Shown piece by piece: positions 9,782 through 48,542 of a stretch of 64,000 bases of DNA. The stretch lies in the IMG/VR virus record IMGVR_UViG_3300045988_175974. One strand, written 5' to 3'. This DNA is from a virus. Under the pieces are notes generated by a model, which saw nothing but the letters and a program-made list of their open reading frames with translations, had not been told where the DNA came from and searched no databases. The position numbers and the translations under genes are program-made. Position 1 is the stretch's first letter. Each line of letters starts with the position of its first letter.

Positions 9782-11266
9782 TTACGGCTTCTGAATATCT
9801 CGCCATACCTTGCGAGCCTTGCACTGCGATACGCTGCCGATTGCCCAGCCCTTATGCTTTGCGGCTACCTGATTAAAACGGTACCAGATGTTTATATCTG
9901 TGAACTCAAAGTGCATCGTACCTTTTTTATAAAACTTCACGCGGAACCAATCAAAATAGAACCATTTGCCGAAGTCGGTGCAGCGGTGTACAACATTCTG
10001 CTCAAATGGGCGGGCGTACTCATCAGTTAGCGGCTTGCCGTTTAGGAAGCTCATCGCCTTGTAGAAATCTTCCATTTCCCGTTGGCGGCCGTCGGATGCG
10101 TAAAAGCTATAATCAAGATACCCGCGGTAATTCATTTCACAATCCAGGTAATCAACAATAAACTTTTGGTTCACCATATAGTTGCTATTCGTCTTCCACT
10201 TCTCGCCCGCTGTCGAATTTTCAGCGGATAGGCTGCAAATGGTGTCGAATGCCTTAACAACGCACTCCTCCATGATGTTTCCGATGTTCTGTAATACGGA
10301 AGACACGACCAGATAGATATTTTTCAGGTTGAAAGGGCGAGCCTCGGAAGTCTCCACAAATCGGGCGATCTTCTCCTGTAATACGTTGGTAGTGTACTTC
10401 TGCATATTGAGCAACTGGAAGACGTTGTGCCACGCAGCGTGCTGCAACTCCTTGCGGAAGCGGTCGCGGGTGATGTTTTGAAACTTGTTGCCTCGGCAGT
10501 CATCCCCGTGAGCGCCAAAATGAATGCGGCAAGCCGTGAAGGTTTTTATATCTTCGTTTATCTTTTTGCTTGCCTCCTGCACTGCGTCAAACTGCGCCAG
10601 GGCTGAGTTGTAACGCTTCACCATATCGCGCACAGCATCGTATTTGATTACGCCTTCCTGACCGTTGCCCATATCGTCCCAGCCTTCCGGTGTCTCGTCA
10701 AATTCCAGGTCCTCGAAATCCTCTGTTTTGTCGGATGGCTTATAAAGACGAATAAGCGAGATTTCCGCATCTGTTCGGCGGTCGGCGGTCGAAGTGTTGA
10801 ACACATCGCCTAAATCCTCACGGCTTCCATAAAGGTCTGTCAGATCCTTTAATTTCTTGTCGTCGCCATAAAAGCTTTTAAAGCGAGAAGAAGGGCAGAG
10901 GGCTAAAATCGTGCAACCATCCGGCGCAATCTCCCAGGCGTGCAAAATATGCTTTTCTACCGTGGTAAATGGCGGGTTCATGATAATATAGTTTATATCT
11001 GCCACCTGCTCACGCTGCACTGTCAGAAAGTCAGGCGCGATCACGTTACACTCATTATATAAGGCGCTCCGCAGTACGTCGTTTATCTCGCAAGCTTTTA
11101 CGTATCTTGCGCCGTCCTGCTTGCAATATCTTACAATATCGCCGGAACCTGCAGAAGGTTCTAATATTACGGCATCCGCCAGGCTCTCGCCCTGGGTCAT
11201 CATATCGAAGACCTCGCGGGGTGTGGTGTAAAAATCACGGTTAAATATATTTTGATAATCTATCAT
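9782..11266 (-). CDS. N6-adenine DNA methyltransferase (494 aa from ATG 11266) with a large C-terminal extension.
   Basis: SAM motif I ILEPSAGSGDIV and catalytic motif IV IIMNPPF. The N-terminal 95 codons in the ORF track overlap the upstream gene and a hairpin. Confidence 0.8.
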   Translation of the reverse strand: MIDYQNIFNRDFYTTPREVFDMMTQGESLADAVILEPSAGSGDIVRYCKQDGARYVKACEINDVLRSALYNECNVIAPDFLTVQREQVADINYIIMNPPFTTVEKHILHAWEIAPDGCTILALCPSSRFKSFYGDDKKLKDLTDLYGSREDLGDVFNTSTADRRTDAEISLIRLYKPSDKTEDFEDLEFDETPEGWDDMGNGQEGVIKYDAVRDMVKRYNSALAQFDAVQEASKKINEDIKTFTACRIHFGAHGDDCRGNKFQNITRDRFRKELQHAAWHNVFQLLNMQKYTTNVLQEKIARFVETSEARPFNLKNIYLVVSSVLQNIGNIMEECVVKAFDTICSLSAENSTAGEKWKTNSNYMVNQKFIVDYLDCEMNYRGYLDYSFYASDGRQREMEDFYKAMSFLNGKPLTDEYARPFEQNVVHRCTDFGKWFYFDWFRVKFYKKGTMHFEFTDINIWYRFNQVAAKHKGWAIGSVSQCKARKVWRDIQKP

Positions 11267-11378
11267 TTTATTTTTTGCTTTTTTGATGAGTGAAAGAAAA
11301 ATTTTTCTTGCGGCGTATTTTTTCGGTGATGATTTACGCACGCTATAACGTAGGATTTCCGAAGCTTTGAGGGGGTAG

Positions 11379-11402
11379 GGGTGAGGGATTGAACCCTCAC
11401 CC
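11379..11402 (-). terminator. 9-bp GC-rich hairpin (GGGTGAGGG / CCCTCACCC) downstream of the J-domain gene.
   Basis: Read directly. The minus-sense loop TTCAAT resembles a T-loop, but no other tRNA arms are present and no U-tract follows. Confidence 0.35.
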
Positions 11403-11421
11403 GGTGCCCTCGGCTCTCGAT

Positions 11422-13917
11422 TTATGCGGCTTTGCCGTTGTTCGCCTCTGTGCCCTCGTCCCAGGTATAAAGGGTCTGTAACTCCTCGGCACTTAAAACG
11501 ACCTTTGCGCGGTTCCTGGCGCATCGGCGGATCTGTGAGTGCTTCGCCCAAATCTCCGGTGCTGGCTTATTCCCTAGCGCCTCGGAAGTGTTCAGCTCTC
11601 GCAGCTCGTCGATAAGGTCGCGAACGTCAACGCCGCAGGCGCAAAGGGCGTATAGTTCAGCGAGAGCCGCGCGCCCGTGCTCGTTGGCATACGTGAGCCG
11701 TTCAACGTCTTCCGCCGCTGCTCGCAGCATTGAGAGATCAACGCCAGAACCGCCGCCGTTTTTTGGTCGGCTCTGTGCGGTTTTGCCCGTCTGCTGCTCT
11801 GCTGCTGCCTCTTCGCTTGCGTCCTGCCCTGATTCCAGGACGTTTAATCGCTCCTGCATCTTGGCGAGGGTATCGGACAGGTTCGCCACCTGCTCAGTTA
11901 CTTTCTTTATCTGATCGCGAAGGATGGCGGCGGCCTCCTTGCGTTTTTCTGCTCTGTGCTCTGCCTCAAATTTGGCGGTAGCTTTCGCCGCTTCTGCTGC
12001 TGCCTGTTTTAATGCCTTGTTTGCCTTTTCGGTTGCTGATACGATAGCACCGACCAGGAAAGAGAGGGCAGAAGCAAGAACGCCGACGGCTTCCACCTGC
12101 TCGCAGGTTTTCGCATCCGCTGCGCTCTGCTGCTCTTCTGTTGCTTCCTCGGTATCCTCTACCGTCTCGGCGGTTTCATTCTGCTGTACGTCATCCGGTG
12201 CGGTCTCTGCTTCGCTCTGTTCAGTCATCCCGAACCACTCGCGAAGGGCTGCCACCGCCTCGGCTGTGGTTGCTTGCCACTGCTGCGCCTCCTTGTTCCA
12301 TCGTGCGCCGTGCGCTTTTATCTGCTTGCGGTTTTTGTAGGTTGTGTGCTGATCGCCTACGACTGCCACACCCTCGGCAATCTCTACAAGTTCCAGCCCA
12401 TCGGCTGGCGCTGCGGTCAGATCCACGCCCTCGGCTGCCTTCTCGCTCTTCGCTGCATTCTGGCTGCGGTCTGCCTTGTGTGCGGTCTGCTTGCCGTTCT
12501 TCTGTTCCTCTTCCCACTGCTTGCGCTGCTTCTCGACCTCCTCGGCATCCTTGCGAAGCTCTGCGAGTACATCGGCGGCAAACTGCAAGATTTCCACATC
12601 CTTATAACTGTTATAACCATAATTTGAGATCCGAATACCTACGGCTGCGAACTTGTCGGCGCGCTTCTGCTGAACCTTAGCACCGCCGCCGTTAACGCCA
12701 TAAATGCATCTTTCACCGTCATAAATGGAAGGCTTGCCAAGGTACACTTTTTCGCCATTCGCTACAATCTCGGCGGCTTCATTAATTGAAATCTCTTTAT
12801 AATGACACGTACCATCTACAGGCACACAGAAAACATTCGCGCCCAGGGCTTTTTTAATTGCCTGCCAGGTCTTGCCGTGTTTTGCCTCGAAAACTGGCGC
12901 GGCTGCAGCCTCTACTGCTGCCTTTGTGGTTTCTTCGCTGATGGTGTAAACCTTTAAGAAAGCATCTAAAACACAATTTAAAGACGTTGTTTTACGATAC
13001 CAGTAACGCGAACTTTCTAAATCATAAATAATTTGTCGCTGTGCTTCGAATTGTTCGTAATACTTACTTTTCGCCTCTCTCTCTTCCTCGCTCAGATTTA
13101 ACCAGGCTTTCCCGATTTCTCTGTGATAGAATCCGAGGATTTGACAGCAGCGCAAAGTATCTTCTGCGGTAATAACTACCGCATCGTTTTTATTAGTCAT
13201 CCCCTCAAACTGCGGGAAAACCTCGTAAATCTTTGCCATTACTTCAGCTTTTCCGAGGTCTGAAAATGTGCGGGTGAACTCGAAACGACCTGCCGAGATT
13301 TGGCCGTATTGATTGCGCCATGCTCGGGTGCTCTTCATTTCTTCGTCGTGGCCGTAGTCCTCGTAAGGGCTACAGGTGTGATAATGAGAAATAAACAGGT
13401 TTAATTCTTCCACCTCTTCCACCTGCTGAACGGTTGGGCCATCGGTCCAGAAGATTTCAGCGGATGCGCTCCAAATCTTGTTTTTTAATAATACTCTAAA
13501 CTCAACGCCCGGAAAATACTTGGTTAAAATCTGCTTAATATTATATTTAACCGCTGCGAGGTAGTCGGCAGATGGTTTCGCGATCCATCCGTCCGCAGGT
13601 GCCACGGTCTTTAGTTTACTGCTCCACTTTGCGATAACTTCGCGGAGTGCTTCGGCTGCCTTGCGCGCCTCTTCCTCTTCCTCGCGCTTGCGTTCCTCTT
13701 CTGCCTTGCGTGCTTCCTCTGCTTCCTTGCGTGCTTCCTCCTCGGCTCTTGCCTCTTCCTTTGCGCGCTCGAAGTTCTTAATAATACCGTTATACTCTGC
13801 CATCATTGCTTTGAACTCCTCAGGGTCTCCGCCCTTGTCCGGGTGCATACTTACACAATAAGCGCGGAACTGCTTTTTTATTTCTTCGGCTGTGGTTATA
13901 TTATTAAAATACTTCAT
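11422..13917 (-). CDS. 831-aa J-domain (DnaJ-like) protein with E/A/K/R coiled-coil regions and a GC-rich C-terminal half.
   Basis: N-terminus ...FRAYCVSMHPDKGGDPEEFKAMMAEYN carries the HPD tripeptide. A KAHGARWNKEAQQW motif occurs in the C-terminal half. Confidence 0.75.
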   Translation of the reverse strand: MKYFNNITTAEEIKKQFRAYCVSMHPDKGGDPEEFKAMMAEYNGIIKNFERAKEEARAEEEARKEAEEARKAEEERKREEEEEARKAAEALREVIAKWSSKLKTVAPADGWIAKPSADYLAAVKYNIKQILTKYFPGVEFRVLLKNKIWSASAEIFWTDGPTVQQVEEVEELNLFISHYHTCSPYEDYGHDEEMKSTRAWRNQYGQISAGRFEFTRTFSDLGKAEVMAKIYEVFPQFEGMTNKNDAVVITAEDTLRCCQILGFYHREIGKAWLNLSEEEREAKSKYYEQFEAQRQIIYDLESSRYWYRKTTSLNCVLDAFLKVYTISEETTKAAVEAAAAPVFEAKHGKTWQAIKKALGANVFCVPVDGTCHYKEISINEAAEIVANGEKVYLGKPSIYDGERCIYGVNGGGAKVQQKRADKFAAVGIRISNYGYNSYKDVEILQFAADVLAELRKDAEEVEKQRKQWEEEQKNGKQTAHKADRSQNAAKSEKAAEGVDLTAAPADGLELVEIAEGVAVVGDQHTTYKNRKQIKAHGARWNKEAQQWQATTAEAVAALREWFGMTEQSEAETAPDDVQQNETAETVEDTEEATEEQQSAADAKTCEQVEAVGVLASALSFLVGAIVSATEKANKALKQAAAEAAKATAKFEAEHRAEKRKEAAAILRDQIKKVTEQVANLSDTLAKMQERLNVLESGQDASEEAAAEQQTGKTAQSRPKNGGGSGVDLSMLRAAAEDVERLTYANEHGRAALAELYALCACGVDVRDLIDELRELNTSEALGNKPAPEIWAKHSQIRRCARNRAKVVLSAEELQTLYTWDEGTEANNGKAA

Positions 13918-20038: not shown

Positions 20039-20082
20039 CTCTTCGGAGATTCTTCGGAGATTCTTCGGAGGTTCTTCGGAGG
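20039..20082. repeat. Four tandem 11-bp units TTCTTCGGAG(A/G).
   Basis: Read directly. The array lies between a minus-strand promoter (20152-20188) and the ATG at 19922. Confidence 0.85.
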
Positions 20083-20151
20083 TTGTTCGCAAAACGATTT
20101 TCCTCTTTCCATCCTATCTCCTAGCGTTCGCCTTCGGGTAATCTTATGATG

Positions 20152-20358: not shown

Positions 20359-20488
20359 AGCTTTTGCCCTTACAGGGCGACAGGCGTGCGACTACCGTTA
20401 CCCAGGGCGATTGCCCTGGGCTAGGAGGGGCTGCCCTTTCAGGGCGCATGGGTGAAGGAGGGGCTGCCTTTTCAGGGCGCATGGGTGA
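20359..20488 (-). repeat. Family A repeat, copy A2, with its 33-bp terminal module tandemly duplicated (20423-20455 and 20456-20488).
   Basis: Read directly. A third partial unit overlaps the stop codon of the 153-aa gene. Confidence 0.85.
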
Positions 20489-20496
20489 AGGAGGGG

Positions 20497-20958
20497 TTAG
20501 GCTTCTGCTTGCTTCATCAAGGCTAATATCTCCTTGGCTCTTGCCTTGCACTGCAGGCGGAAATTCTCGAAATCTTCAAACTCGGCGGCTATGCTGCGCT
20601 CTTCTATCTCGTTGCAGGAGGACGGCATGTTCTGTACCATCAGCGCATTGTTGACGATGGCTTCTACATCGTCTTTGCTATATCGGCTCCTCACTAACGC
20701 CGTTACCAATGGACCATAATAGGTGGCGGCGCTATCGGCTACGCTGTCTCGCTGGGCTATATAGCTCAAGATAGAGGCAAGGGCTTCATTGAGCATGTTC
20801 TGCACTGGAAGGGCCAAGAGGATTTCTTTGGCGGATGCCTGGGCATTTACGCTTACTACACTAGGATTTTCTTTACCCGATGTAACGACTACATTCAGGT
20901 ATTTCTTCTCTTTTCCTACGGATACGGAGAAATAGGGGTTTGTGGGTTTCTTTTCCAT
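20497..20958 (-). CDS. Hypothetical protein (153 aa).
   Basis: ATG-initiated ORF with a consensus promoter upstream. Confidence 0.55.
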   Translation of the reverse strand: MEKKPTNPYFSVSVGKEKKYLNVVVTSGKENPSVVSVNAQASAKEILLALPVQNMLNEALASILSYIAQRDSVADSAATYYGPLVTALVRSRYSKDDVEAIVNNALMVQNMPSSCNEIEERSIAAEFEDFENFRLQCKARAKEILALMKQAEA

Positions 20959-20998
20959 GATTATCGAAATTTTAAATGAGATTTATATATTGTTAGGG

Positions 20999-21035
20999 CA
21001 AAGATACGGCTATTCTATTATTTGGTGCGGACAAA
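20999..21035 (-). promoter_or_regulatory. Minus-strand promoter: TTTGTCCGC, N20 spacer, TATCTTTGCCC.
   Basis: Plus strand shows CAAAGATA at 20999-21006 and GCGGACAAA at 21027-21035. Confidence 0.5.
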
Positions 21036-21151
21036 ATGCGGTTATGCTATCCTGATAAGCCCATAACTGCACTATTTCGGTAGAAATAAGAATATTCGGA
21101 AAAATATTAACAGCGTTTTTCGCTAAAATTTACACTAAAAAAAGAACACTA

Positions 21152-22573
21152 TCAGAATATCCGATAATCTGGTTTGATTCTAATACTCTCGTAATGTCCT
21201 TTTACGTAAAAATATTTCCAAAAGTTATTACCTAGGTTGATGATGTTTCTCTTGCGTATCATATAGGTTTGATGATGCACGCAGAAGCCGAGATAAGAAT
21301 TGATTACCTGCTCTATTCTCTCCAGGTCATAATAGGTGATATTTCTGTTTTCGTCGAGCTGCTTTCTGAATCCGGAAACACGCTCCTGGAATCTGCCTAT
21401 GGTTCTCGAACTGACGTAGGTGCGACCGGGCTTGATATAGCCTCCTACGAACAGTACTCCGTGGCTAACAGGCTGCAAATATTTCTTGTCATTATGTATA
21501 TGGATTCCATAAATTGAGGTGACGGCTACGAGCCGGGGAACTACCTGGAGTATCTTATACTTATCATCGCAGATAATGAGAAAATCATCGACGAATCGGA
21601 TGATTCTGAAATTAGCTCCACGCATCAGGAAGAGAAGCCAGATGTCGAATAGGATGGATAGATAGAAATTAGCAAATTGCTGGGTAGTGTGATTGCCGAT
21701 AGGTCCGCCCAGGTTGCGGTCTATCGTGAACATTGATTTGCTTTTCGGTAGTTTTTGCCATTCTTTAGGATCGCCATTGATGATGCAGTCGTCTTCGGGG
21801 TGATGAAAAATAACGGTCTTCACGGTTCTGAGAAGAATTTCCTTGTCGCCTCCGTTGTAGTGCCTGCGGATAAAACGCTCTAGCAGGTACCATAAGAGAT
21901 TTCTGCGAATAGACATGAAGAAGCTTACCAGGTCGCCCTTGAATACCCAGGCTTGCTGGGTGTAATTCTCCGATACCTCCCTCATTCCTTTTTCCGCAGC
22001 CCTGACTGCTGCCAGTGTTCCGAATCCCTTGCGGCAGTTGAAGGAGATATTTCCCATCTGCCGGAATCGCTTCTCAAACAGTGGTTCCAGGCGAATAATG
22101 ATCCAATGATGCACGATACGGTCACGAAAATCCGCTGCGAAAACTTCTCGCAGTTTCGGGTATTTTACAAGAAAACAAATGGATATGGTTGGCAGGTATA
22201 TTGCCATGTAGATTTCGTAGGCTAATTTAGGTAAGTCTTCTGTGGCTATTTTCATATATGCGATAGTGTGAGGGGATGACATCTTTCCCCGCTTACAGTC
22301 AAGATAGGCTTCGCAAACTGCCTTGATAGCTTCTCTGAATCCCCCGTATGCCACTGCCGCCCTCACCGTTAAGCCGTTGTACTTGTTGTTGCCGTTAGTG
22401 TTGCCGTCGTTGGAGTTCACGTTCCACGCGTTGTTGCGGCTGTTCTCAGTACTAGCCCAATAGTTCGCGGATTTCTGCGGTATTGCATCTTCGTAACTTG
22501 CATGATCGGTAGAGCCGCCACTGCAAGTAAACCGCCCATTCAGTAAGATTCGACCTAGTTCTCTTCTGCTCAC
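21152..22573 (-). CDS. DGR-type reverse transcriptase. The ORF runs from GTG 22573; the true start is uncertain.
   Basis: Motifs include KRGK...PKLREVFAADFRDRIVHHW, GNHTTQQFANFYL and the catalytic box IRFVDDFLI. The TR lies within the first 97 codons. Confidence 0.85.
   Translation of the reverse strand: MSRRELGRILLNGRFTCSGGSTDHASYEDAIPQKSANYWASTENSRNNAWNVNSNDGNTNGNNKYNGLTVRAAVAYGGFREAIKAVCEAYLDCKRGKMSSPHTIAYMKIATEDLPKLAYEIYMAIYLPTISICFLVKYPKLREVFAADFRDRIVHHWIIIRLEPLFEKRFRQMGNISFNCRKGFGTLAAVRAAEKGMREVSENYTQQAWVFKGDLVSFFMSIRRNLLWYLLERFIRRHYNGGDKEILLRTVKTVIFHHPEDDCIINGDPKEWQKLPKSKSMFTIDRNLGGPIGNHTTQQFANFYLSILFDIWLLFLMRGANFRIIRFVDDFLIICDDKYKILQVVPRLVAVTSIYGIHIHNDKKYLQPVSHGVLFVGGYIKPGRTYVSSRTIGRFQERVSGFRKQLDENRNITYYDLERIEQVINSYLGFCVHHQTYMIRKRNIINLGNNFWKYFYVKGHYESIRIKPDYRIF
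22348..22473 (-). repeat. DGR template repeat (TR).
   Basis: 126 nt collinear with the VR. Translates as the Asn-rich YWASTENSRNNAWNVNSNDGNTNGNNKYNG. Confidence 0.85.
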
Positions 22574-23052
22574 GCCTCACCTCCTTTCGGGGCTAGCGAC
22601 AAAACAGAACCCTCGCTAGCGGGTAACGAACCTCGCCATGCCATTAACTGGTTCTGGATACCCTTTACGTGACTTTGCGCCTTCTTGAGAAGGTCTTTTG
22701 AGATAAGATGATTTTTCTCTAACAATACAAAGTCCTGTCTGAGATTCTTGACAAACACGATTGCCTGACCTATATACCATCGTCTATCCTCTGTAGAGAA
22801 ACTTACATCTGCGCTGCCGATTGAGGTTGCGAGATTATCTGCTTCTTCATATAGAGAGTCAGTGAACCGACGAAGGTTGCGCGGAGCATTCTTAGCGATG
22901 CCGATGATGACAAACTTCAGATTGCCCACAGCCCGGTAAACCGGCAGTTGTGCCAAGGTCAGTTTGCGTTGAGCCTTCTTGTGTAAGGAGTTTTCTATCG
23001 CATCCTGCGAAATCAAAACTCCACTATCGTTAATGTCTTTTATTTTCTCCAT
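22570..23052 (-). CDS. avd: Avd-like accessory variability determinant (four-helix-bundle type, 160 aa from ATG 23052).
   Basis: It lies between the VR and TR. The protein is basic and predicted helical. Its stop overlaps the RT GTG (GTGA). Confidence 0.6.
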   Translation of the reverse strand: MEKIKDINDSGVLISQDAIENSLHKKAQRKLTLAQLPVYRAVGNLKFVIIGIAKNAPRNLRRFTDSLYEEADNLATSIGSADVSFSTEDRRWYIGQAIVFVKNLRQDFVLLEKNHLISKDLLKKAQSHVKGIQNQLMAWRGSLPASEGSVLSLAPKGGEA

Positions 23053-23060
23053 ATTGGCTG

Positions 23061-23092
23061 CAAAGATAACAAAAATCCGCCAGACTGCCAAA
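23061..23092 (-). promoter_or_regulatory. Promoter for avd-TR-RT: TTTG, N20 spacer, TATCTTTG.
   Basis: Plus strand shows CAAAGATA at 23061-23068 and CAAA at 23089-23092. The leader before ATG 23052 is very short. Confidence 0.45.
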
Positions 23093-23145
23093 AATTCCGG
23101 GAAGTTTTAATGTAATTACACATAAAATGGCGATTTTTGCGACAA

Positions 23146-23181
23146 AATTCCCCCTGCAAGCTGGCGCTTGCAGGGGGAATT
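23146..23181 (-). terminator. Perfect 16-bp stem with a 4-nt loop, downstream of the VR and target-gene stop.
   Basis: AATTCCCCCTGCAAGC, TGGC, GCTTGCAGGGGGAATT read directly. Confidence 0.6.
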
Positions 23182-23254
23182 GCATAAAAGATGATAGCTC
23201 CCTAAAATGTGCGGCGTTTTTAAAAAACGCCGAAGTGAGGTCTTAGGCTATCGC

Positions 23255-26200
23255 CTAAAGGCTGAAGGTGAATGCCACTGCCGCCCTCACCGAGAAGCTG
23301 ATGTACTTGTAGTAGCCGCCAGTGTAGCCGTCGTAGGAGTACACGTGCCACGCGTAGCCGCGGCTGCTCTCAGTACTAGCCCAATAGACCGCGGATTGAT
23401 ACATCATAGCAACAGGGCAGACGGCAGATTTATCCTTAGCTCGCTTCAGCAGATTGGCGAATAACGGCGTTACAGCCTCGCTCTCCGGTCGCTCATTGGC
23501 GTAATCGATGGATGCGGCGGTATTGTTCTGCCATCCCCTACTGTTACCGAAGAAGTTATAGACTCTCGCCAGCTCGCCTTCTGAAGGTAGATACCAGTTG
23601 CCTTTCTTGTACTGCTCATTCAGCGTAGAGGTTCCGCTGACCGATGGCTCGTAAAGATGGCATCCGTATGCAGCAGGGTAATAGAGCTGCTTCCAGGTGT
23701 CAGGATATGTAGCACCCTCATCTGCCTTCTTTTTTACAAGCGCCGCCATACGATTAGACAATTCCTGTAGCGTTTTCGGATAGGACTCATCAAGATAGAG
23801 ACTGATCACATTGTTCGCCCATCGTACTATAGCATCAGTGTTGCTTTTTCCGTCAAACTCGTTCAATCTAGATTTCGGGTCGAGCACCTTGTAACCGTCT
23901 TCTGTTGTAGTATCCTGATACGATTCCGTCGTAATTCTACCGTCTTCTTTCAGCTCACCATCCTCATTCGTATTATAGAGTTCTCGAGTATATCCATTCG
24001 GCAGGTCCGCAATATCACAAATATCGCCAACACCCACAGCAGTACCTATCTCATCAAGCACATCCTGTCCGACCGTATATAGAAGATAATTATTACCATC
24101 TGTATTATCGGTTATTGCAGGAAAGATACCCCAAGGAATGTACGATGAATTGATGGTCTTGTCATCTGACACATAAGAGACGTTCTCGGCAGAATACACT
24201 CTTAACCGGATTTGGCTATCTGAGAGCTTTTCCGACTTGAATACTACTCCTACACACGTCTTAGACGTATCAAGCTCATCATCGAAACTTCCGTCAGAAT
24301 ATGCAAAATCACCGACTCTAGGAATGCGGTTATAGAAACCGACACCTTTAGTATAGGTCAGCTCCGTCCCGTCTGTCAGTTCAATGCGCACCCTTACCTG
24401 GAATTTCAAATCCAGCGAAGCATCAGAAAGTTTTTTTACGTTCAGCGTACCCTTCACATGGTCGGTAAACTCGGCATATTGCCCGGCTTGCTCCGCATTA
24501 TCTCCCACAAACTGATAATCTACGGCAGGGCGATTATTCCTCACCGCGATATTGTTACCAGAAGTAGGAAGAATATCCAGTTTCCACTGGTTCCATATAC
24601 CCGTCTGCTTGATATATTTATCGCCGCCTACTTGAATCTTGCTAATCGTTCGCTTCGGATAAGACACATACAGAGGGTTGCTTGTGCTCTGAATGTTTCC
24701 GTACTTTTCTATCAGGTCGAAGACCTCAGCAAAAGTCAGCAATCCAGCCGAACCGTCAATAAGAATTATCTTACCGCTTATCGTGCTGCTCTTGGCAGCG
24801 GTCAGGTATCTGAGCACATCCGCTCTCATCGAGCGGTAGTTTACTCCCGTAAGCTTCACGGTGGATAATGCGAGCGGACTACCTTCCTGCTTGTACTCAT
24901 AGATAGACGTAACAAGCGCCTCGGAACTGATACCCAGGCTGGAATCATCACATTCGAGCGAAACAAGCTGACTAGCTCCCTGCAAGGAAACCATCTTCAA
25001 AACTGGCAACTCTGAGAGTGACAGCTTCGAGAGATTGGCGGGGAGCGCCACACTTGTCAGTACCTTGCTCTTAGGCAATCGCACATCGTAGATAGCCGTA
25101 TCCTTAACGTTGATGGTATGCAGTCGCACCAGATTGGTTGTATCTAGCGAACCGCCGATCTCCACGCATCCCTTCAGCGACAACTTCTGCACTTGAAGTG
25201 CAGAAACGATAATGTTGTTCGGACGGAACGCAGGAACCATCTTGCCAGTCACCATATCCTTATAGAGCATGGTAGGCTCGGCTATTACCTCCGTTAATCT
25301 CTTGCCGTTAATGGTAACGGAAAGGTTCGGAGAAGTAGAGAGATTACCGATGTTGCCGATGGAGTGGTAGTAATTGATACCCAGGATTGAGAGACCCGTA
25401 TCATTGGAAGTGGTCGTACCCAGATTCAACTCATATTCCTCATCCGGCGCTACACGCACGTGAGGGTCCACGCTGGTCTGTCCCATCATACCGGTAGGGT
25501 AAAGATACTGCGAAGGTTTCACCTTGAACTTATATTCCGTTGCCGAAGTAGCAGAATCAGGAAGGTGGAATGCCTGCATCGCAAAAGTATCGGTTACGTC
25601 TGCCACACCGATATTCTCACTCTTACCGCCATCGAAGAGATTACCCCAGGCTGCGTAGCTCGCCATATAGACCAGTCGCTGCTTCATATACTGCCGCTCA
25701 CCGAGGATAGATGATCCGCACGACTGCGTGATAGGAGCCACACCGCGCGCACCGGAACCGGAACTGATGAATCCGAGCATCGCAGGATATTCGTATCTGA
25801 TACGAGCCTGCTCCGCGAAAGCAATCTCACTGAAATAGCAGTTTACATAGAAGAGATACTTCCACAGACAGCCCCATACGCTCACCTTTGATGTTCCGTT
25901 CCAGCCCTCGATATGGTCGTTTTCTGATACCAGCTTACACATCGCAGAGAAGATGGATTTCAGCATCGACTGCAATTCACGGGTATTCTCGTAAGCTTCC
26001 TCACAGAGATTGAACAATACATTGTTCATACCCTCATACTGCGAAGTAGTCTTGTCGTTGTCGGCATAAGGGTGCATACGATCCACGTAATATTTTTTGG
26101 TAAATCTTCCGTTGTTGTCGGTCGCCATGATGGTATCTACGTCGTCCTGATGCAGCTCCATCAATACGCAGTGCCTGGTCTCGCCATCGATGGTTACATC

Positions 26201-29200
26201 CTTCTCCGTGGCAAGCACATAGTAGGTGTTCTTGGAACAGTTGTCCGTACCTGCCATAAAATGATTGATGAAGGCGTAATGGAAACGGAGGCTCTTTTCA
26301 TCGATATACCAGCCGACGTACTTTTTGAAGTGAGCCACGATAGCGGCAATCAGCTCTTCGTTGAGCTTGGCAAACTGCGCCTTATTAGCAGACGCATTAT
26401 AGGCAGCTTGCGTCATCTCGTAGGTACGGAGATCGATACGCTCGAAAGCGCCGTTCTTCCACAATCCGGCATCTACCCACTTCCTGTTTACGAAATTGTA
26501 TCGTTTCAGGACATAGGCATCATCACCCTGCGTACACCAATACTTGAACTGGGTATTCTTTGCCTCGTCAGACAACTGGAAATCATTGAAAGTGCCAACG
26601 TAATGTTTGATTCTCGGAGCATGCAGATAAATGAAGTTGAATATCTCAGCTATTCTATTGGTCAGATGGTCCTTCGGATATTCCTTGCCGTTTATCACGG
26701 TGGTGGCTCCCCCATCAAAATCGATGCACTGCAATCCGTTGTAGAAGTAACCCTCGTCATCCGGAGAATAGGTAATAACTTCAGGGCAGGTTTTATCCAA
26801 CGTAAACGGAACTCGCATATCCGTCAGGTCGTAGTTGTTATCCGAACCCTCAAACATAGCGAAGTTAGGATAAAGCTTCTTGACATATCCCCACGTTGGC
26901 TTATCCATCTTTCCAGCTCCGAAATTGCCGCCGCCACGGAATACAGGCTTGCTCTCTCCCTCGCCTTGCGTAAAGAAATATACAGGTTCGGTGTACTTGG
27001 CAACTCGTGCCGTAGAGCAGGCTTGCTGAAGCGAGTTCTTGCCCACAACGATGTCGTGAAGGTCGTTAAAGAGACGACAGCAACCGGTAAGGTGTGACTG
27101 CATGGAAGAGGCATAGTTGATTTTCAGCACCAGCTTCACAGCGTAAGGAGTATTGAAACCTACCTGATAGCCAGCACCGCGGTACTTGCCGTTGCCGTCA
27201 ATCCATCCGTCAGGAACCTCTACCGATGGCACACCCGCTACCTCTACGTATCTGTAGAGCTTTGCTTCATTCTTCACCGGATCAGATTTTCCGAGATTAC
27301 CACCGTAAATAGCGACGAATCTCTCTGTTTCCTGCGTCTCGGCATTGGTAACAGGGTCTTGCAATACCCACGTCAGGTTGCTGCCCAGATTTACGAGAGG
27401 TACGATAATAACACCTGCGTCCGAAATCTTGGTCTGGTGATTAGAGTAGAAGTAAGTGTTAGCGGTAGAACCCTGACGCTTATCCTTCATCTTGGTCTCC
27501 TTGCAGATGGTACCAGAAAGTTCCGGAATATAGTTGCCATCCTCGTCATATTGAAAAATCTCCCACCATACCTTCTGCGAACCGCTGTTGTAGAAGTACG
27601 GCTCCACGCCGTGCAGAATCAGCACACGTTTGCCGAGTGCCTTCACCTTCTCAACATCCACTTTCTCGCCCGTGAGAATGTCGTTGCGCTTGCGTGCCGC
27701 ATTCTTCTCCTCGGTGGTCGGCAGAGTAGAAATGTAATCATCAATGACATTCTTGCTCTCCAACTGCATGTTCTGGTAGCATCGGAACGAATAAATATCA
27801 ATATCGGCTGCCTCCTGACCGATGGTGATACCGCCGTTACTCATCGCTCCGGTGCAGAACTCCTCCTTGTTGGATGTAGAGAACTTCACTTCTCTCACCG
27901 GGTCGCCATTCAGAAAAATGCGCGCCAGCGGAATGGTCGTGGCTGCGGTATTCAGTGAATCACTGGTAGGTACCAGTGCATCACCTTTGTTTGGTATCAC
28001 GGCATTATGGATGTTCAGTGCCAGATGTACACGTTCATTTTCTTCAATGTGGAAATCTACCTCCGAGTCGGTGCTGTTGGATGCAGAATAGATATAGCCT
28101 TCCAATGGCAGGAGTTTGAAACCGATGGTATTGCCAGCCACCTGCTCGCAGATTTGGATGATTGCCTTCTTGGTATCGGTGACGTTGCGCACGCGAAGGT
28201 CGAACTCGAAGGTCATAGACGAATCCGGGGTAGTGTAAAACTGAGAGAACGGATTGAACTTGAAGTTGACCGATGATCCGGCAGGCACACGGAGCACCTT
28301 GATACCGTCTTCGGCAGTTACCCAACCGTCATTTACAAAACCGAAATTCTTCCAGGTGCTCGCCACCTCGGCATTGTTTGCCTTGGCATTATAAATCTTG
28401 CGAGGGTCCTTCTCGGTATTGTTGCGCACTTTTGGATTGAGCAGGAATGTGGCTCCTGCGGTAGGCGCATAAGCCTCGGTGTTATCGATGTCGATGCTGA
28501 CATTATCTACGCCCATACAGTCGGTGAGGAAATCCACCTCCTCGTCGCCTACCTTACGGTACGCACGGAAATAGGCAGTAAACTTGTTGGACTGCTCATC
28601 CAATTCAATTTCCACCGTAGTGGAGAGGGTTGACTGAACGCCAGGCTGCACGTCCTGCTCTACACGGAAGTATTCTGTCACCTTATCGGAAGGGAACTTG
28701 TCGGTATAGGAGGTAAGATAGAAGATGGTGGTAACATTACCGCCATCATTGGTGATGCTTCCATCGCTGTTTACCTTCGGGCTATACACCGCATAATCGC
28801 AAAGCTTCACCTGAGTGAAGTTGACCGCCTCCTTTACCAGGTTCTGAATCATCAGATACGGCTTTCTAATATCCACACCTGCGGTCTGGGGATTGATGAT
28901 CATAAAACGGTTCTCCAGAACATCCGATTTCAGCGTGCCACCCAATCCGTCGTCGCAGGTAAGCCAAGCCTTTACCAGTCGCACACCGTGAGTAAAGAGC
29001 TTGTAGGTATCTGTAGGGTCCTTGTAAGTGCTTCGCACGGTGGTTCCGTTCTCGGTAGAGGCAGAATCACGGTTGATGGTCAACACCTGACCATTGCCAC
29101 CGGTAATCTCTATATGCAGGGTTTTCTGCACCTCGCCGTTCACCAGGTAGGCATAAGGGAAACCATTCGCCTGCTGGGTAGCGGCATAGATGGGGGTATG

Positions 29201-29926
29201 GTAATCCTGCCGGCAACTCAAAGAGAGGTTGGCGAGGGTTACGGATGCACCGATCACTACATAGGTAGAAGCCTGGCTCTGCTGGTTGCCATCACCGTCG
29301 AGATAAGTAAATCTCGCCTGCACTCTCACCTGCTGCGTGCCATCGGTGAGATAGGGTCCCAGATCGATGTTCTTATATTCGGTGGTATTGGAATAATCGG
29401 TAGAATCCAATACTTCCTCCAGGGTCGCTACGGTCTGCCAGGCGTTTGTACCGCTCTTGCGCTGTACCACCAGTGTACCCTTACTGCCTACGTTCAATCG
29501 GTCGCCGTTACTGGTACGCACGGCGTGGAAACGAAGGGGAACAATCAGCTCCTTTTTCGCTACTACAAGATTTTTGGTAGAAGAGATGGTAGAGAAGAGA
29601 TAAGCGCCATAGCTATCTCCTTGCACGGTAGAGATAGGCAATGCCTCGTCAACAAGCAGGAGTGCCTTGATACTCGCATCCTCTTTGTCTCCTGCGGCAT
29701 AAGCTTTGTAGTCTGCCTCATTGCGGAATCCCCACAGGTGATAGTAGTTGCTGCTATCGACGGTAGGAGACCAATGGTAGTAACCGACCTTCCTATCGTG
29801 CTCCTTCAACAAAGCCTGTAATGCTTCTCTTACCGCCTTACCCGAATAAGGCAAGCCGTTTCGTGCATCCTTACCCCAGTCTTCGGTAAGGACGTTGATA
29901 ATTTTGTTTTGACTGATTTTTGCCAT
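23255..29926 (-). CDS. Giant tail-fibre or receptor-binding-like protein (2,223 aa from ATG 29926) with a C-terminal C-type-lectin/DUF1566-like DGR-variable domain.
   Basis: Uninterrupted ORF. The C-terminus reads ...GNWYLPSEGELARVYNF...YWASTESSRGYAWHVYSYDGYTGGYYKYISFSVRAAVA. The ORF-track start at 29968 is a TTG. Confidence 0.85.
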   Translation of the reverse strand: MAKISQNKIINVLTEDWGKDARNGLPYSGKAVREALQALLKEHDRKVGYYHWSPTVDSSNYYHLWGFRNEADYKAYAAGDKEDASIKALLLVDEALPISTVQGDSYGAYLFSTISSTKNLVVAKKELIVPLRFHAVRTSNGDRLNVGSKGTLVVQRKSGTNAWQTVATLEEVLDSTDYSNTTEYKNIDLGPYLTDGTQQVRVQARFTYLDGDGNQQSQASTYVVIGASVTLANLSLSCRQDYHTPIYAATQQANGFPYAYLVNGEVQKTLHIEITGGNGQVLTINRDSASTENGTTVRSTYKDPTDTYKLFTHGVRLVKAWLTCDDGLGGTLKSDVLENRFMIINPQTAGVDIRKPYLMIQNLVKEAVNFTQVKLCDYAVYSPKVNSDGSITNDGGNVTTIFYLTSYTDKFPSDKVTEYFRVEQDVQPGVQSTLSTTVEIELDEQSNKFTAYFRAYRKVGDEEVDFLTDCMGVDNVSIDIDNTEAYAPTAGATFLLNPKVRNNTEKDPRKIYNAKANNAEVASTWKNFGFVNDGWVTAEDGIKVLRVPAGSSVNFKFNPFSQFYTTPDSSMTFEFDLRVRNVTDTKKAIIQICEQVAGNTIGFKLLPLEGYIYSASNSTDSEVDFHIEENERVHLALNIHNAVIPNKGDALVPTSDSLNTAATTIPLARIFLNGDPVREVKFSTSNKEEFCTGAMSNGGITIGQEAADIDIYSFRCYQNMQLESKNVIDDYISTLPTTEEKNAARKRNDILTGEKVDVEKVKALGKRVLILHGVEPYFYNSGSQKVWWEIFQYDEDGNYIPELSGTICKETKMKDKRQGSTANTYFYSNHQTKISDAGVIIVPLVNLGSNLTWVLQDPVTNAETQETERFVAIYGGNLGKSDPVKNEAKLYRYVEVAGVPSVEVPDGWIDGNGKYRGAGYQVGFNTPYAVKLVLKINYASSMQSHLTGCCRLFNDLHDIVVGKNSLQQACSTARVAKYTEPVYFFTQGEGESKPVFRGGGNFGAGKMDKPTWGYVKKLYPNFAMFEGSDNNYDLTDMRVPFTLDKTCPEVITYSPDDEGYFYNGLQCIDFDGGATTVINGKEYPKDHLTNRIAEIFNFIYLHAPRIKHYVGTFNDFQLSDEAKNTQFKYWCTQGDDAYVLKRYNFVNRKWVDAGLWKNGAFERIDLRTYEMTQAAYNASANKAQFAKLNEELIAAIVAHFKKYVGWYIDEKSLRFHYAFINHFMAGTDNCSKNTYYVLATEKDVTIDGETRHCVLMELHQDDVDTIMATDNNGRFTKKYYVDRMHPYADNDKTTSQYEGMNNVLFNLCEEAYENTRELQSMLKSIFSAMCKLVSENDHIEGWNGTSKVSVWGCLWKYLFYVNCYFSEIAFAEQARIRYEYPAMLGFISSGSGARGVAPITQSCGSSILGERQYMKQRLVYMASYAAWGNLFDGGKSENIGVADVTDTFAMQAFHLPDSATSATEYKFKVKPSQYLYPTGMMGQTSVDPHVRVAPDEEYELNLGTTTSNDTGLSILGINYYHSIGNIGNLSTSPNLSVTINGKRLTEVIAEPTMLYKDMVTGKMVPAFRPNNIIVSALQVQKLSLKGCVEIGGSLDTTNLVRLHTINVKDTAIYDVRLPKSKVLTSVALPANLSKLSLSELPVLKMVSLQGASQLVSLECDDSSLGISSEALVTSIYEYKQEGSPLALSTVKLTGVNYRSMRADVLRYLTAAKSSTISGKIILIDGSAGLLTFAEVFDLIEKYGNIQSTSNPLYVSYPKRTISKIQVGGDKYIKQTGIWNQWKLDILPTSGNNIAVRNNRPAVDYQFVGDNAEQAGQYAEFTDHVKGTLNVKKLSDASLDLKFQVRVRIELTDGTELTYTKGVGFYNRIPRVGDFAYSDGSFDDELDTSKTCVGVVFKSEKLSDSQIRLRVYSAENVSYVSDDKTINSSYIPWGIFPAITDNTDGNNYLLYTVGQDVLDEIGTAVGVGDICDIADLPNGYTRELYNTNEDGELKEDGRITTESYQDTTTEDGYKVLDPKSRLNEFDGKSNTDAIVRWANNVISLYLDESYPKTLQELSNRMAALVKKKADEGATYPDTWKQLYYPAAYGCHLYEPSVSGTSTLNEQYKKGNWYLPSEGELARVYNFFGNSRGWQNNTAASIDYANERPESEAVTPLFANLLKRAKDKSAVCPVAMMYQSAVYWASTESSRGYAWHVYSYDGYTGGYYKYISFSVRAAVAFTFSL
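23272..23397 (-). repeat. DGR variable repeat (VR) encoding the last ~42 residues of the target protein.
   Basis: 108 of 126 positions are identical to the TR. 17 of the 18 mismatches fall at TR adenines (coding strand). Confidence 0.85.
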
Positions 29927-30058
29927 ATAAAATATGTTTAATTTTTCCAACCTAGATTTTCCGTCCAAGGCTTCTCGTTAAGCCATAGACCGCTAGCGAA
30001 GCATGATAATACCGCTACCGCTGCCATTAACAATCGTCTTCTGAATCTACTCATAAGC

Positions 30059-37263: not shown

Positions 37264-38466
37264 CTATGCTTTTGAGATGATAAAGGATGAATTGGTACCG
37301 CCAAAACCGAAGGCGTTACAGAGAATATGGTGAGGTGCATAGAGCTTCGGGCGCATCACCAGATTGAGGGATGGGAAGGCATTCTCCTCGGTCGTTACCG
37401 CGCCAAAGAGACTGCCGTAGGTGAGCATCATCACGGCTTGCACGGCTTGCGATACGCCTGCCATCCAACACTCATGACCGGTTAAGCCTTTCGTGGCTAC
37501 TACGTTCGGACAGATAGGAAAAATCCTTGTGATGGCGTTGGCTTCGGCTTCATCTCCCATTGGGGTACCGGTGGCGTGAGCGAGAACGACATCTATCATA
37601 CCTTCGTCCAATCCTGCGTTCTCAATGGCGTGAAGCATGGATACTTCCTCCTGATAGGTATCGGGGGTAGTGATGGCTTTTCCATTAGACGAGAAACCAT
37701 AGCCGGAAAGAGAAGCGAAGGAATGCACTTTCTCTTCTTTCAGACGAAAGCTATCCGATGGTTCGAGGATGATACAGGCTGCGCCACCTGATGGTGCCAA
37801 TCCGTTTCTACCTTTGCCAAACGGCTGCACCTTATCGGGTGAGAAGACACCGAGGGCATCGAATGCTTCCATGCAGTATTGAGATCCGCATTCCTGCGCG
37901 CCAATCACGATTACCATTTCCGTCTGCTTGCTATTGAGAAGCATCTTGGCAAGACCAATAGCGTGACCTCCTCCGGCACATGCTGCGCTTACGGTAAGCG
38001 ATAAGCCGTGGATATGAAGGATAGATGCCAGGTTCATACTGATAGTGGAGTTGAGCGAACGGAACAATGTTTCTACAGACAATGTTCTGTTATGTACTCC
38101 ATAGCCTATATGATTCACCACCGACCGACTTTCGTAGCATTCAGAATCATTACTTACGATAATAGACACGTTGTGATTTTCAAGAAAATCCTTACTAATT
38201 TTTGCTTCTTTTAAAGCTTCAAATACTGCATCGAGTACATAAAAGCCATGAAGGGGCAGGCATGCTCTCTGCGCACGAGTGAGAATTTCGTTATATTCTT
38301 CTACCCAAACAGGCACATTGCCGCATAAATCGGAATTGTATTTATCGCGGCATTCGTCGTGATGCAATCCGCATTTACCCTTATAAAGGTTCATGGCTAC
38401 TTCTCTGGTACTTCTGCCTAGGGCAGAATGAATACCTGTTCCGGTAATTAATATCTTTTTATCCAT
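37264..38466 (-). CDS. Beta-ketoacyl-ACP synthase, KAS I/II (FabB/FabF-like) type, 400 aa.
   Basis: ITGTGIHSALG; active-site Cys in SAACAGGGHAIG; His motifs HATGTPMGDEAE and KGLTGHECWMAG; C-terminal NAFGFGGTNSSFII. Confidence 0.85.
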   Translation of the reverse strand: MDKKILITGTGIHSALGRSTREVAMNLYKGKCGLHHDECRDKYNSDLCGNVPVWVEEYNEILTRAQRACLPLHGFYVLDAVFEALKEAKISKDFLENHNVSIIVSNDSECYESRSVVNHIGYGVHNRTLSVETLFRSLNSTISMNLASILHIHGLSLTVSAACAGGGHAIGLAKMLLNSKQTEMVIVIGAQECGSQYCMEAFDALGVFSPDKVQPFGKGRNGLAPSGGAACIILEPSDSFRLKEEKVHSFASLSGYGFSSNGKAITTPDTYQEEVSMLHAIENAGLDEGMIDVVLAHATGTPMGDEAEANAITRIFPICPNVVATKGLTGHECWMAGVSQAVQAVMMLTYGSLFGAVTTEENAFPSLNLVMRPKLYAPHHILCNAFGFGGTNSSFIISKA

Positions 38467-47097: not shown

Positions 47098-47247
47098 CTA
47101 ATCATACTCTAATAATATTTTCGGTTTATCTACATCATGCCCTTTGCCCCCTCCACATAGGCATAAAGCGATACCTTTCGGGTGAACAATTATGCCGTTT
47201 TGGGATGGACTATAAGAGCCAAGGATGATAGGACGATTACAAATCAT
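47098..47247 (-). CDS. 49-aa ORF resembling the target-recognition-domain segment of C5 methyltransferases (...IVHPKGIALCLCGGGKGH...).
   Basis: Its start overlaps the methyltransferase stop (ATGA). It resembles the GIAxTLxAxxGG segment of Dcm-type enzymes. Confidence 0.4.
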   Translation of the reverse strand: MICNRPIILGSYSPSQNGIIVHPKGIALCLCGGGKGHDVDKPKILLEYD

Positions 47248-48542
47248 TTCTTCTCCAAAAACTGATGATACATACTTTCCAACTTAGGATTTGAGAACTT
47301 GCCGTTTTCTTTCCAATCGTTGAACAACGTCATTACGTCGGTATGGATGGAAGAAAGCTTTTCCTGCATCTCTTTCGGAGTGTGGTACCAAAGATGCGAC
47401 TCTTTCGTGAAGAGGGTGAGGATGGCTTTCAATGCCATGGCGTTCTCATGGCTCGGCTCTATCTCAAACTGATGGAAGACGCAGGTGTCTTTATCGTTTG
47501 CCTGAAGGAACTTGCTGACGGCTTCATCTTTCAGGAAGAACCTTATATCTACTTCTTCCTGCAACACATCTTCCAACTTTCTCTTCAGCGGAATAGGGTC
47601 TGGGAACTGATAATCGAAGGCTACATCTTTTCTCATTGAGAGACAGAAAACACGGTCACGGTTCTGCGGAACACCATAGTCTTTGGCATTGAGGCGTGCC
47701 CATCGGCTTACGTAGCCGAGAGAAGAGAGTTTATCAAGCCACTTCTGAAAATCGGGCATAAACTTTTCGCTTACCAGGGCTGCCACGTTCTCCTGGAGCA
47801 GATACTTCGGACGCAAAACTTCTACGGCATCGGCTACTCTCCACAATAATGCCGAGCGGGTATCGGAGCCTTCCTTCAAGCCCATCTGCTTGCCGGCTTG
47901 CGATATATCCTGACAAGGTGAGGAATAGGTGAAAAGGTCGATTCCTTGCCCCCCCACATTATTCTTTACCTGTTGCCAGTCGATTTTGGTTATATCGCCC
48001 AAGGCTTTGTCAGCAAACTGCGGAAAGATAAGGTCGTGCATCTGACAGGCGTATTTGTCTATATCGCTCCAGCCTACACATGTCCAACGGAAATCAGGAT
48101 GCTGCTGGGCAAGGACATCGGCTGCCATGAGCTGCGAGTCATAACCGGAGAAGGTGGTGAGAATAAGTTTTTCACCGTGGTTCTTATCTACCGGATAGGG
48201 TGGAAGTTGGTCTTTTGGGAAGAAATCGGCAAAGAAAGAGGTCTGCGTCTCACGCTTTGGCTCTTTCGGATACCAGAGTTGCTGATAGATGGCTGCGAGC
48301 ACATCTACCACGATGGAGTTACCTGCTTGCTTGTATTGCTGACTGGCTGATACTGCCATATCTTCTGCCTTTCCCTTGCTCTTATAGCCAGCTACTCGCT
48401 CGGCTGCCTGGGCATTGGTACTCTGCATCGTGCGAATTACATCATCTCGCACACCCATCAATCGGAAACACTCGAAAGGTGTCAGCTTTCGGATGGCATA
48501 AGACTTAATGGTTTTATCCTTGAAATTGAACTTTGTTATCAT
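47244..48542 (-). CDS. DNA (cytosine-5) methyltransferase with circularly permuted motif order (IX-X precede I-VIII).
   Basis: N-terminus RKLTPFECFRLMG and QAGNSIVVDV (motifs IX/X), then TTFSGYDS (I), SSPCQDIS (IV), LLQENV (VI) and QNRDRVF (VIII). Confidence 0.85.
   Translation of the reverse strand: MITKFNFKDKTIKSYAIRKLTPFECFRLMGVRDDVIRTMQSTNAQAAERVAGYKSKGKAEDMAVSASQQYKQAGNSIVVDVLAAIYQQLWYPKEPKRETQTSFFADFFPKDQLPPYPVDKNHGEKLILTTFSGYDSQLMAADVLAQQHPDFRWTCVGWSDIDKYACQMHDLIFPQFADKALGDITKIDWQQVKNNVGGQGIDLFTYSSPCQDISQAGKQMGLKEGSDTRSALLWRVADAVEVLRPKYLLQENVAALVSEKFMPDFQKWLDKLSSLGYVSRWARLNAKDYGVPQNRDRVFCLSMRKDVAFDYQFPDPIPLKRKLEDVLQEEVDIRFFLKDEAVSKFLQANDKDTCVFHQFEIEPSHENAMALKAILTLFTKESHLWYHTPKEMQEKLSSIHTDVMTLFNDWKENGKFSNPKLESMYHQFLEKK

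Follow-up and report, generated by a model that had tools for sequence, protein, structure and literature searches.

The diversity-generating retroelement (DGR) of Bordetella phage BPP-1 (mtd-avd-TR-brt) is the prototype of a gene order in which a target gene with its variable repeat (VR) is followed by the accessory variability determinant (avd), the template repeat (TR), and the gene of the reverse transcriptase (RT). Published work on such elements has shown that Arg74 and Ile181 of the Bordetella RT (bRT) promote adenine mutagenesis, that the signature [I/V/L]GxxxSQ in DGR RTs replaces QGxxxSP, the form usual in the RTs of introns and retroviruses, and that phage DGR hairpins have a 4-nt GRNA loop, lie 4-34 bp downstream of the VR, and have a GC-rich stem of 7-10 bp. 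Bacteroides phage BS-TP1 is reported to carry a DGR, and in temperate phages of Bacteroidaceae most DGR targets are proteins of ~2,000 aa that lack annotation and are potentially tail-related (Gut Microbes 2025, PMC12694917); B. uniformis phages are also reported to carry DGRs, to judge from the title of the paper concerned. Among the classes that have been set up, target category 'd' or CLec2 comprises DUF1566 and DUF823 as well as Fib_succ_major, with a Legionella DGR as an example (Wu et al. 2018, PMC5758913), and the 'group 3' cassettes of DiGReF have a TR that overlaps the annotated open reading frame (ORF) of the RT (Schillinger et al. 2012, PMC3521204). Here we describe a locus in a 64-kb stretch of viral DNA (the window, within which all coordinates are positions) that we consider, with a probability of roughly 0.93, to be a canonical and complete DGR with the prototype gene order target(VR)-avd-TR-RT, carried by a ~106-kb human-gut phage whose host is probably Segatella/Prevotella. 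The anatomy of the cassette, which lies wholly on the minus strand, can be read directly, and TR and VR stand in an adenine-specific relation that recurs in nine related lineages, where non-adenine changes of the TR are co-inherited by the cognate VR. The parts of the cassette are as follows.

23255..29926, minus strand: DGR target gene, 2,223 aa, from the ATG at 29926 to the TAG at 23255-23257; the VR is in a DUF1566/Lcl_C-like domain made up of the C-terminal ~130 aa
23272..23397, minus strand: VR, coding for residues 2177-2219 of the target
23272..23292, minus strand: 3' end of the VR, 21 nt and GC-rich, CGGTGAGGGCGGCAGTGGCAT, a putative mutagenesis boundary like the initiation of mutagenic homing (IMH) site, the same as the TR 3' end and nearly invariant in relatives
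23243..23258, minus strand: candidate hairpin or cruciform TTAGGC-GATA-GCCTAA, 13 nt past the VR, holding the target stop codon, with a GRNA-type loop in the DNA fold
23150..23232, minus strand: two strong terminator-like stem-loops (23212-23232 and 23150-23177), which part the target gene from the avd-TR-RT operon
23061..23068, minus strand: TATCTTTG, a Bacteroidota-type TAnnTTTG -7 motif 8 nt upstream of the avd ATG, putative promoter
22570..23052, minus strand: avd, divergent, 160 aa, a helical bundle by fold and profile matches
22474..22569, minus strand: pre-TR leader, from the avd stop to the TR, open in the RT frame and not evolving as coding sequence
22348..22473, minus strand: TR, in the same frame as the RT, with 12 AAC codons and 41 adenines in all
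21152..22354, minus strand: DGR RT, minimal coding sequence (CDS) from the GTG at 22354 inside the TR 3' end to the stop codon at 21152-21154; the mechanical ORF runs to the GTG at 22573 and overlaps the avd stop
21680-21700, minus strand: RT motif IGNHTTQ, a variant of the DGR signature
21584-21595, minus strand: RT catalytic box FVDD, of the YxDD type

The repeat search found one 126-nt direct repeat pair with 86% identity, at 22348-22473 and 23272-23397. When recounted base by base on the minus strand, TR and VR differ at 18 positions, and 17 of these are adenines in the TR (9 A>T, 6 A>G, and 2 A>C), an enrichment with a hypergeometric p of 4.7e-9 given that adenines make up 41 of the 126 TR bases. 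The sole non-adenine mismatch is a G>A difference between TR position 99 (window 22375) and VR 23299; its explanation by non-adenine mutagenesis was rejected, the difference being a lineage-specific A>G change on the TR side. The final 21 nt of TR and VR are identical, and homology stops abruptly on either side. This 21-nt end marks the 3' limit of the mismatches and is the same in both repeats, so that there is no IMH/IMH* difference inside it, and complete divergence sets in right after it. The 21-mer has only two sites in the window at <=3 mismatches, where 0 are expected, and no third copy of the TR scaffold was found in the 64 kb; a second target in the window was therefore rejected, as neither scan gave another site. 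The codon layout of the TR is such that 36 of its 39 in-frame adenines fall at codon positions 1-2 and just one codon can mutate to a stop.

A megablast search of 21000-30000 against the phage collection gave no match, and an exact scan with the TR pattern, adenines being replaced by N, gave none in IMG/VR or the JGI metagenome contigs, the lineage being absent from both collections; relatives were found via proteins instead. The RT has 3,419 homologues at E <= 1e-10, and the exact RT protein is encoded on 16 human-gut metagenome contigs, one of them 106,251 bp long; Segatella/Prevotella metagenome-assembled genomes are indicated by the protein names of two homologues and by one genome match. 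Eight distinct TR/VR pairs, from the window and from relatives with RTs 84-98% identical, have 13-29 mismatches each, with 13-23 at TR adenines (p = 1e-7 to 2e-10), and in a ninth pair, on contig L028, 20 of the 22 mismatches are at TR adenines. Moreover, a tally of TR substitutions relative to the window TR gave 55 non-adenine ones, 49 of which are present in the cognate VR, and therefore sequence information passes from TR to VR. Columns that are always adenine vary among the VRs in 29 of 38 cases, as against 3 of 81 never-adenine columns that vary without a matching TR change. The 90%-identity cluster of the target has 362 members; in 15 of them (14 full-length relatives and the window protein) residues 2177-2219 are the most variable 42-residue window of the target, with an entropy of 1.2 bits against a median of 0.10, and differences amount to 28-51% within the VR versus 1-10% elsewhere in the target, with which a separate alignment agrees. 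Across the family, then, these assembled sequences are hypervariable in the VR, with the variability confined to adenine-templated positions.

Three further observations were made on the target gene and its surroundings among these sequences. A second variable stretch (entropy 0.67-0.89 bits against the median of 0.10) lies just upstream of the lectin-like domain at target residues ~1917-2020 (window ~23867-24178, minus strand); because no template repeat matches it, it is probably due to ordinary divergence or recombination. In contig L014 (673-2491) a resolvase and an IS605 OrfB/TnpB (Cas12f-like) pair is inserted directly upstream of the DGR target gene. In contig L027 (9500-10355; Logan SRR17032155, 54.8 kb), from a close relative, homology to the window runs as far as the target stop codon, no GRNA-loop hairpin is present, and an unrelated 153-aa ORF stands 122 nt downstream of the target gene in place of avd-TR-RT; 14 of the 16 differences between its VR and the window TR are at adenines. 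The cassette could have been lost or relocated in L027, a contig that ends 680 nt past the target gene, and its VR could be frozen.

The RT matches Pfam RVT_1 and PHROG 1423 (E 1.5e-55). Its best sequence match among solved structures is 8ub7_A, the Bordetella DGR RT in a DGR ribonucleoprotein (RNP) entry (E 4e-13), and in this alignment the residues that correspond to Arg74 and Ile181 of bRT are conserved. The motif IGNHTTQ keeps the I, G, and Q of the DGR signature with a conservative Ser-to-Thr change, and among 120 homologues IGxxxTQ is found in 116 and RFVDD in 114. The closest annotated relatives are RTs of Bacteroides phages, and the models of retron, group II intron, and defence RTs score far under their cut-offs. 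As judged by its sequence, the assignment of the RT to the DGR type is supported. The partner protein was recognised by other means. The AlphaFold2 (AF2) model of the 160-aa ORF is a helical bundle with a predicted local distance difference test score (pLDDT) of 75.8, and in a Foldseek search of the PDB the top 23 matches of this model all belong to the Avd/S23 family; Bordetella Avd (4dwl) is matched with a template modelling (TM) score of 0.84 and a root-mean-square deviation of 1.8 A, and further matches are the Avd chains in 8ub7, the DGR RNP. A profile built from 33 Avd-family members, which came from a whole-library HMMER search, matches 2gsc (E 1.5e-4), and 5 of the 33 members match Pfam bAvd, while some match 23S_rRNA_IVP. 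We regard the ORF as confirmed to be a divergent Avd, recognised solely through its predicted fold and the profile search.

Between VR and avd, the hairpin 13 nt past the VR has a loop of the GRNA type and is kept in relatives with the loops GATA, GAAC, and GAAA; no such hairpin follows the TR. The terminator-like stem-loops at 23150..23232 have an RNA fold of -56.5 kcal/mol (z = -6.8); the terminator scan missed them and direct folding confirmed them, and Rfam gave sub-threshold matches only, on these same hairpins. The promoter motif upstream of avd is conserved as TATCTTTG or TACTTTTG in two intergenic haplotypes that are otherwise divergent. A sigma-70 promoter scan was ignored, as its model does not apply to Bacteroidota.

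A preliminary description of this DNA had called the locus a complete DGR, and this held on every test run, with target VR, Avd, TR, and RT all found. Its tally of 18 mismatches, with 17 at TR adenines and one G-to-A, is matched exactly by the computed recount tabulated by TR base, its identical GC-rich 21-nt end with an abrupt boundary is borne out, and its translations of TR and VR are correct, the TR having 12 AAC codons. The gene coordinates it gave are correct, and the positions of the target CDS (23255-29926), avd (22570-23052), the RT stop codon (21152-21154), the FVDD box (21584-21595), and the promoter motif (23061-23068) were all verified. The RT that it had named by the FVDD box is confirmed and is of the DGR type by the 8ub7_A match and the motif counts, and what it had called an Avd-like gene has the Avd fold according to the structure search and the family profile. 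The TAnnTTTG promoter it proposed is plausible, the motif being retained in both divergent haplotypes, and we treat it as a putative promoter.

With regard to the target, Pfam Lcl_C (DUF1566) is matched by 20 of 21 C-terminal homologues, all below the gathering cut-off (25 bits versus 34.9 for the window protein), and when a profile was made of the C-terminus, it matched 8q4e, the solved structure of the Lcl C-terminal domain (E 2.7e-4), exactly over the VR scaffold. This Lcl domain has been described as C-type-lectin-like and trimeric. The location of the VR in a DUF1566/Lcl-like, predicted C-type-lectin-like domain is thus supported at the level of sequence, as is the DUF1566-type target domain proposed earlier, through the sub-threshold Lcl_C matches and the 8q4e profile match. 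For the N-terminal ~2,000 aa no Pfam, PHROG-function, or solved-structure match was found by which a function could be assigned, a phmmer search of the whole target against the PDB gave no match, and the target's homologues carry the label of hypothetical protein. Of the large ORFs in a long co-directional block, which also holds a head-maturation protease and other giant ORFs, this gene comes last, and in relatives an endolysin is encoded just downstream of it; gene position alone supports a virion role. Two parts of the preliminary description call for correction. It had called the target unusually large, which is not so for this phage group, where targets of ~2,000 aa are published (PMC12694917) and gp27 of BS-TP1 has 2,187 aa; and it had spoken of a giant fibre, whereas Pfam, PHROG, and PDB searches of the N-terminal ~2,000 aa found no fibre, baseplate, or receptor-binding domain. 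A fibre-like nature of this protein and a switching of tropism are thus both inferred.

The relation of TR to RT requires some attention. The mechanical RT ORF of 473 aa has a GTG start that overlaps the avd stop, and the TR is read through in frame. In the 33 codons ahead of the TR there is 1 synonymous change versus 10-13 non-synonymous ones (103:42 in the RT body), and the leader is therefore not evolving as protein; a real N-terminal RT extension made up of these 33 codons, from the avd stop up to the TR, was rejected, as changes there are nearly all non-synonymous or absent. RNAalifold gives a hairpin, and also a long-range helix by which the TR is bracketed; the few compensatory changes represent few independent events, and the leader is probably a structured part of the DGR RNA according to this fold. 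The conserved RT N-terminus (YGGFREAIKAV...), in which changes are mostly synonymous, follows the TR directly. Upstream of the TR, at a distance of 9-15 nt, there is an ATG in many relatives, and gene callers take the ATG 9 nt upstream as the RT start (443-aa calls). In the window lineage an ATA at 22481-22483 (minus strand) stands where relatives have this ATG, which makes the RT start uncertain here, and two in-frame GTGs lie in the TR 3' end. In contigs L001 and L004 there is no start codon between the upstream ATG and the RT core, and therefore translation has to include the TR in these two. Of the 120 best RT homologues, the majority have gene calls of at least 443 aa, and many have a DUF1566 Pfam match at the N-terminus.

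From these observations a further proposal can be drawn, which we consider very doubtful as a whole: that in a large clade of Bacteroidales-phage RTs the TR is RT coding sequence, that the RT bears at its N-terminus a ~45-aa unmutated germline copy of the variable lectin segment of the target, and that the leader hairpin and the TR-bracketing helix stand in place of a non-coding post-TR spacer. If either feature were functional, for example in RNP assembly, cis-preference, or regulation, the clade would represent a distinct mechanistic DGR subtype. The RT N-terminus that abuts the TR, the relatives without a downstream start, and the N-terminal DUF1566 matches of many homologues speak for it; however, the TR/RT overlap is already a recognised cassette class, and the covariation comes from few independent events.

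Several findings weigh against a complete and working DGR with a lectin-like target. In the RT, the signature has Thr at the consensus Ser. Direct sequence searches with Avd against Pfam, PHROG, NCBIfam, and the PDB gave no match. The hairpin stem, at 6 bp and 50% GC, is weaker than the published GC-rich stems of 7-10 bp. The AF2 model of the last 215 target residues reaches a pLDDT of 38.5 only, and the lectin-like fold therefore depends on sub-threshold sequence matches. The VR is identical in the window and in five independent contigs of the strain (L019-L023, assembled consensus from at least four sequencing runs), and TR position 99 is G in the window lineage only, its VR and all other TRs and VRs having A. 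Since position 99 is near the 3' (priming) end, later homing should copy the G, and the last rewriting of the VR predates the TR mutation; to judge from these sequences, the VR of the window lineage has not been rewritten since the A>G change. The identical VRs and the uncopied G point to rare or conditional activity, or to a very recent common ancestry of the sampled phages. Such findings would also be expected if the DGR were intact in structure but silent or very rarely active in this strain, with the VR a frozen product of earlier diversification. In addition to the single VR across all six copies of the strain and to the A>G change near the cDNA-priming end that is absent from the VR, the ATA in place of the ATG 9 nt upstream of the TR of many relatives could lower RT translation, and L027, with 96% nucleotide identity over the target gene, lacks the hairpin and avd-TR-RT in the 680 nt past that gene. 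However, the RT and Avd ORFs are intact, keep their catalytic and signature motifs, and diverge mostly at synonymous sites, and the samples may be closely related. Assembled contigs are consensus sequences, in which minority VR variants are invisible, and four contigs of the strain (L020, L021, L023, and L024), together with L009 of a close relative, end <=~300 nt upstream of the VR or between VR and avd. Breaks of this kind near the VR are compatible with read heterogeneity there and are what heterogeneous reads would be expected to cause. On balance we think that a silent element is unlikely.

A different objection grants a working DGR but holds that its 2,223-aa target is not a receptor-binding tail fibre and binds another ligand, such as mucus, host glycans, or a virion or cell component, so that no tropism switching would follow. 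The N-terminal ~2,000 residues without any domain, PHROG-function, or solved-structure match to a fibre fit this view, as does the fact that eukaryotic glycosaminoglycans are bound by the C-terminal domain of Legionella Lcl, to which the variable domain is closest among solved structures, and there is published precedent for phage DGR targets outside structural modules (Quimbyviridae). We consider it somewhat unlikely, however, in view of the place of the target at the end of the co-directional block with the head-maturation protease and giant ORFs, with the endolysin gene coming next in relatives; the homologous region of BS-TP1 adjoins an annotated tail fibre gene, and the authors of the BS-TP1 paper see such targets as potential tail-related proteins (PMC12694917). 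It could also be asked whether the repeats are an ordinary duplication or gene-conversion tract that lies near an unrelated retron, group II intron, or defence RT, given that the RT scores 51 bits with the NCBIfam group II intron RT model (cut-off 300) and 55 and 44 bits with the PADLOC defence RT (DRT) models UG4 and UG17. Yet the curated cut-offs of the retron, intron, and DRT families are not approached by these scores, the adenine-specific mismatches recur in nine independent TR/VR pairs, and the RT, whose closest solved relative is a DGR RT, has an Avd partner and the motif IGxxxTQ and not the QGxxxSP of intron and retroviral RTs. In addition, an Rfam search of 20900-23500 gave no group II intron RNA or retron non-coding RNA. 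This explanation is already effectively refuted, and its probability is negligible.

For a complete DGR, the biochemical steps would be, by homology with Bordetella phage BPP-1, the following. Its own Bacteroidota-type promoter would drive transcription of the avd-TR-RT operon, and an RT-Avd complex would copy the TR portion of the operon RNA into cDNA, with misincorporation opposite adenines. At the 3' end of the gene for the 2,223-aa protein, the VR would give way to the resulting cDNA; in this scheme the recipient site would be marked by the 21-nt, GC-rich end of the repeat and by the hairpin with the GRNA loop downstream. In the process ~12 AAC-coded positions and neighbouring adenine-containing codons of the DUF1566/C-type-lectin-like ligand-binding surface would be re-randomised, with the scaffold residues unchanged. 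The target may be a virion receptor-binding protein, and its diversification could change the host range. The locus is a well-documented natural case of targeted protein hypervariation in an abundant, uncultured ~106-kb human-gut phage, and a population series (the 362-member cluster, with 14 full-length relatives compared with the window protein) is at hand for a study of which VR variants are favoured in which hosts. With it, a Segatella/Prevotella-associated lineage joins the giant (~2,000-aa) DGR targets lately reported in Bacteroidaceae phages. The present understanding of how DGRs work is left unchanged by the finding.

Elsewhere in the window, a 400-aa ORF at 37264-38466 (minus strand) has both beta-ketoacyl synthase domains (PF00109, E 1.5e-24; PF02801, E 3.3e-19) and is flanked by giant ORFs in what is presumed to be the virion module; at such a place in a phage, a condensing enzyme for fatty acids or polyketides is unusual. 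Just downstream of the DGR cassette there are two tandem repeats, one of 11 nt (TCTTCGGAGAT) in ~4-5 copies at 20040-20094 and one of 33 nt in 2 copies at 20423-20488. DNA methyltransferase-like ORFs are found at 47244-48542 and 9782-11551, both on the minus strand (PHROG 116 at E 3.7e-64; PHROG 32703 and 31814).

Compared with the BPP-1 prototype, the locus shares the order target VR, avd, TR, RT, the adenine-specific differences between TR and VR, the VR at the extreme C-terminus of the target, a target stop codon within a downstream hairpin that has a 4-nt GRNA loop, an RT that can be aligned to bRT with the counterparts of Arg74 and Ile181 kept, and the Avd fold. It differs in several respects. 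Mtd of BPP-1 has ~380 aa and is thus much smaller than the 2,223-aa target of the window, whose variable domain is DUF1566/Lcl-like and not of the Mtd type. The RT has IGxxxTQ and FVDD instead of IGxxxSQ and YMDD, and the hairpin stem has 6 bp and 50% GC versus 8 GC-rich bp. The RT coding sequence adjoins the TR or overlaps with it, so that no non-coding spacer follows the TR, and the divergence of the Avd is too great for a direct match in sequence.

The target has much in common with category 'd'/CLec2, as weak DUF1566 (Pfam Lcl_C) matches overlap the VR in the way that has been described for this category (PMC5758913), and the DUF1566 domain of Lcl, which has a solved structure, can be aligned to the scaffold ...W.S.E....AW.V....G......K....VR... 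of the window target. In contrast to that category, the element is phage-borne, the variable domain is on a very large multi-domain protein, and all Pfam scores are under the gathering threshold (window protein 25 bits versus 34.9). With the DiGReF 'group 3' cassettes the locus shares a TR in frame inside the RT ORF, with the conserved RT N-terminus right after it; here, however, the TR/RT overlap is conserved across a large clade, and some relatives have no start codon downstream of the TR.

The closest annotated phage is Bacteroides phage BS-TP1 (PQ571274.1), which has the same layout of a giant gp27, a four-helix-bundle gp26, and an RT, gp25. The homology between its gp27 (2,187 aa) and the window target extends over the full length (26% identity, E 8e-169), gp26, annotated as 'Four helix bundle protein', is 24% identical to the window Avd, and gp25 has 42% identity to the window RT, with the TR inside the annotated RT CDS; the genome, at 111.7 kb, is similar in size to the ~106 kb of the window phage. 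The two phages are set apart by protein identities of 24-42%, the window having no nucleotide-level similarity to any record of the phage collection, and by the likely host, which is Segatella/Prevotella for the uncultured window phage and not Bacteroides. Both the DGR and its giant target are of a kind already known from gut Bacteroidales phages, and the element described here is a further example of it.

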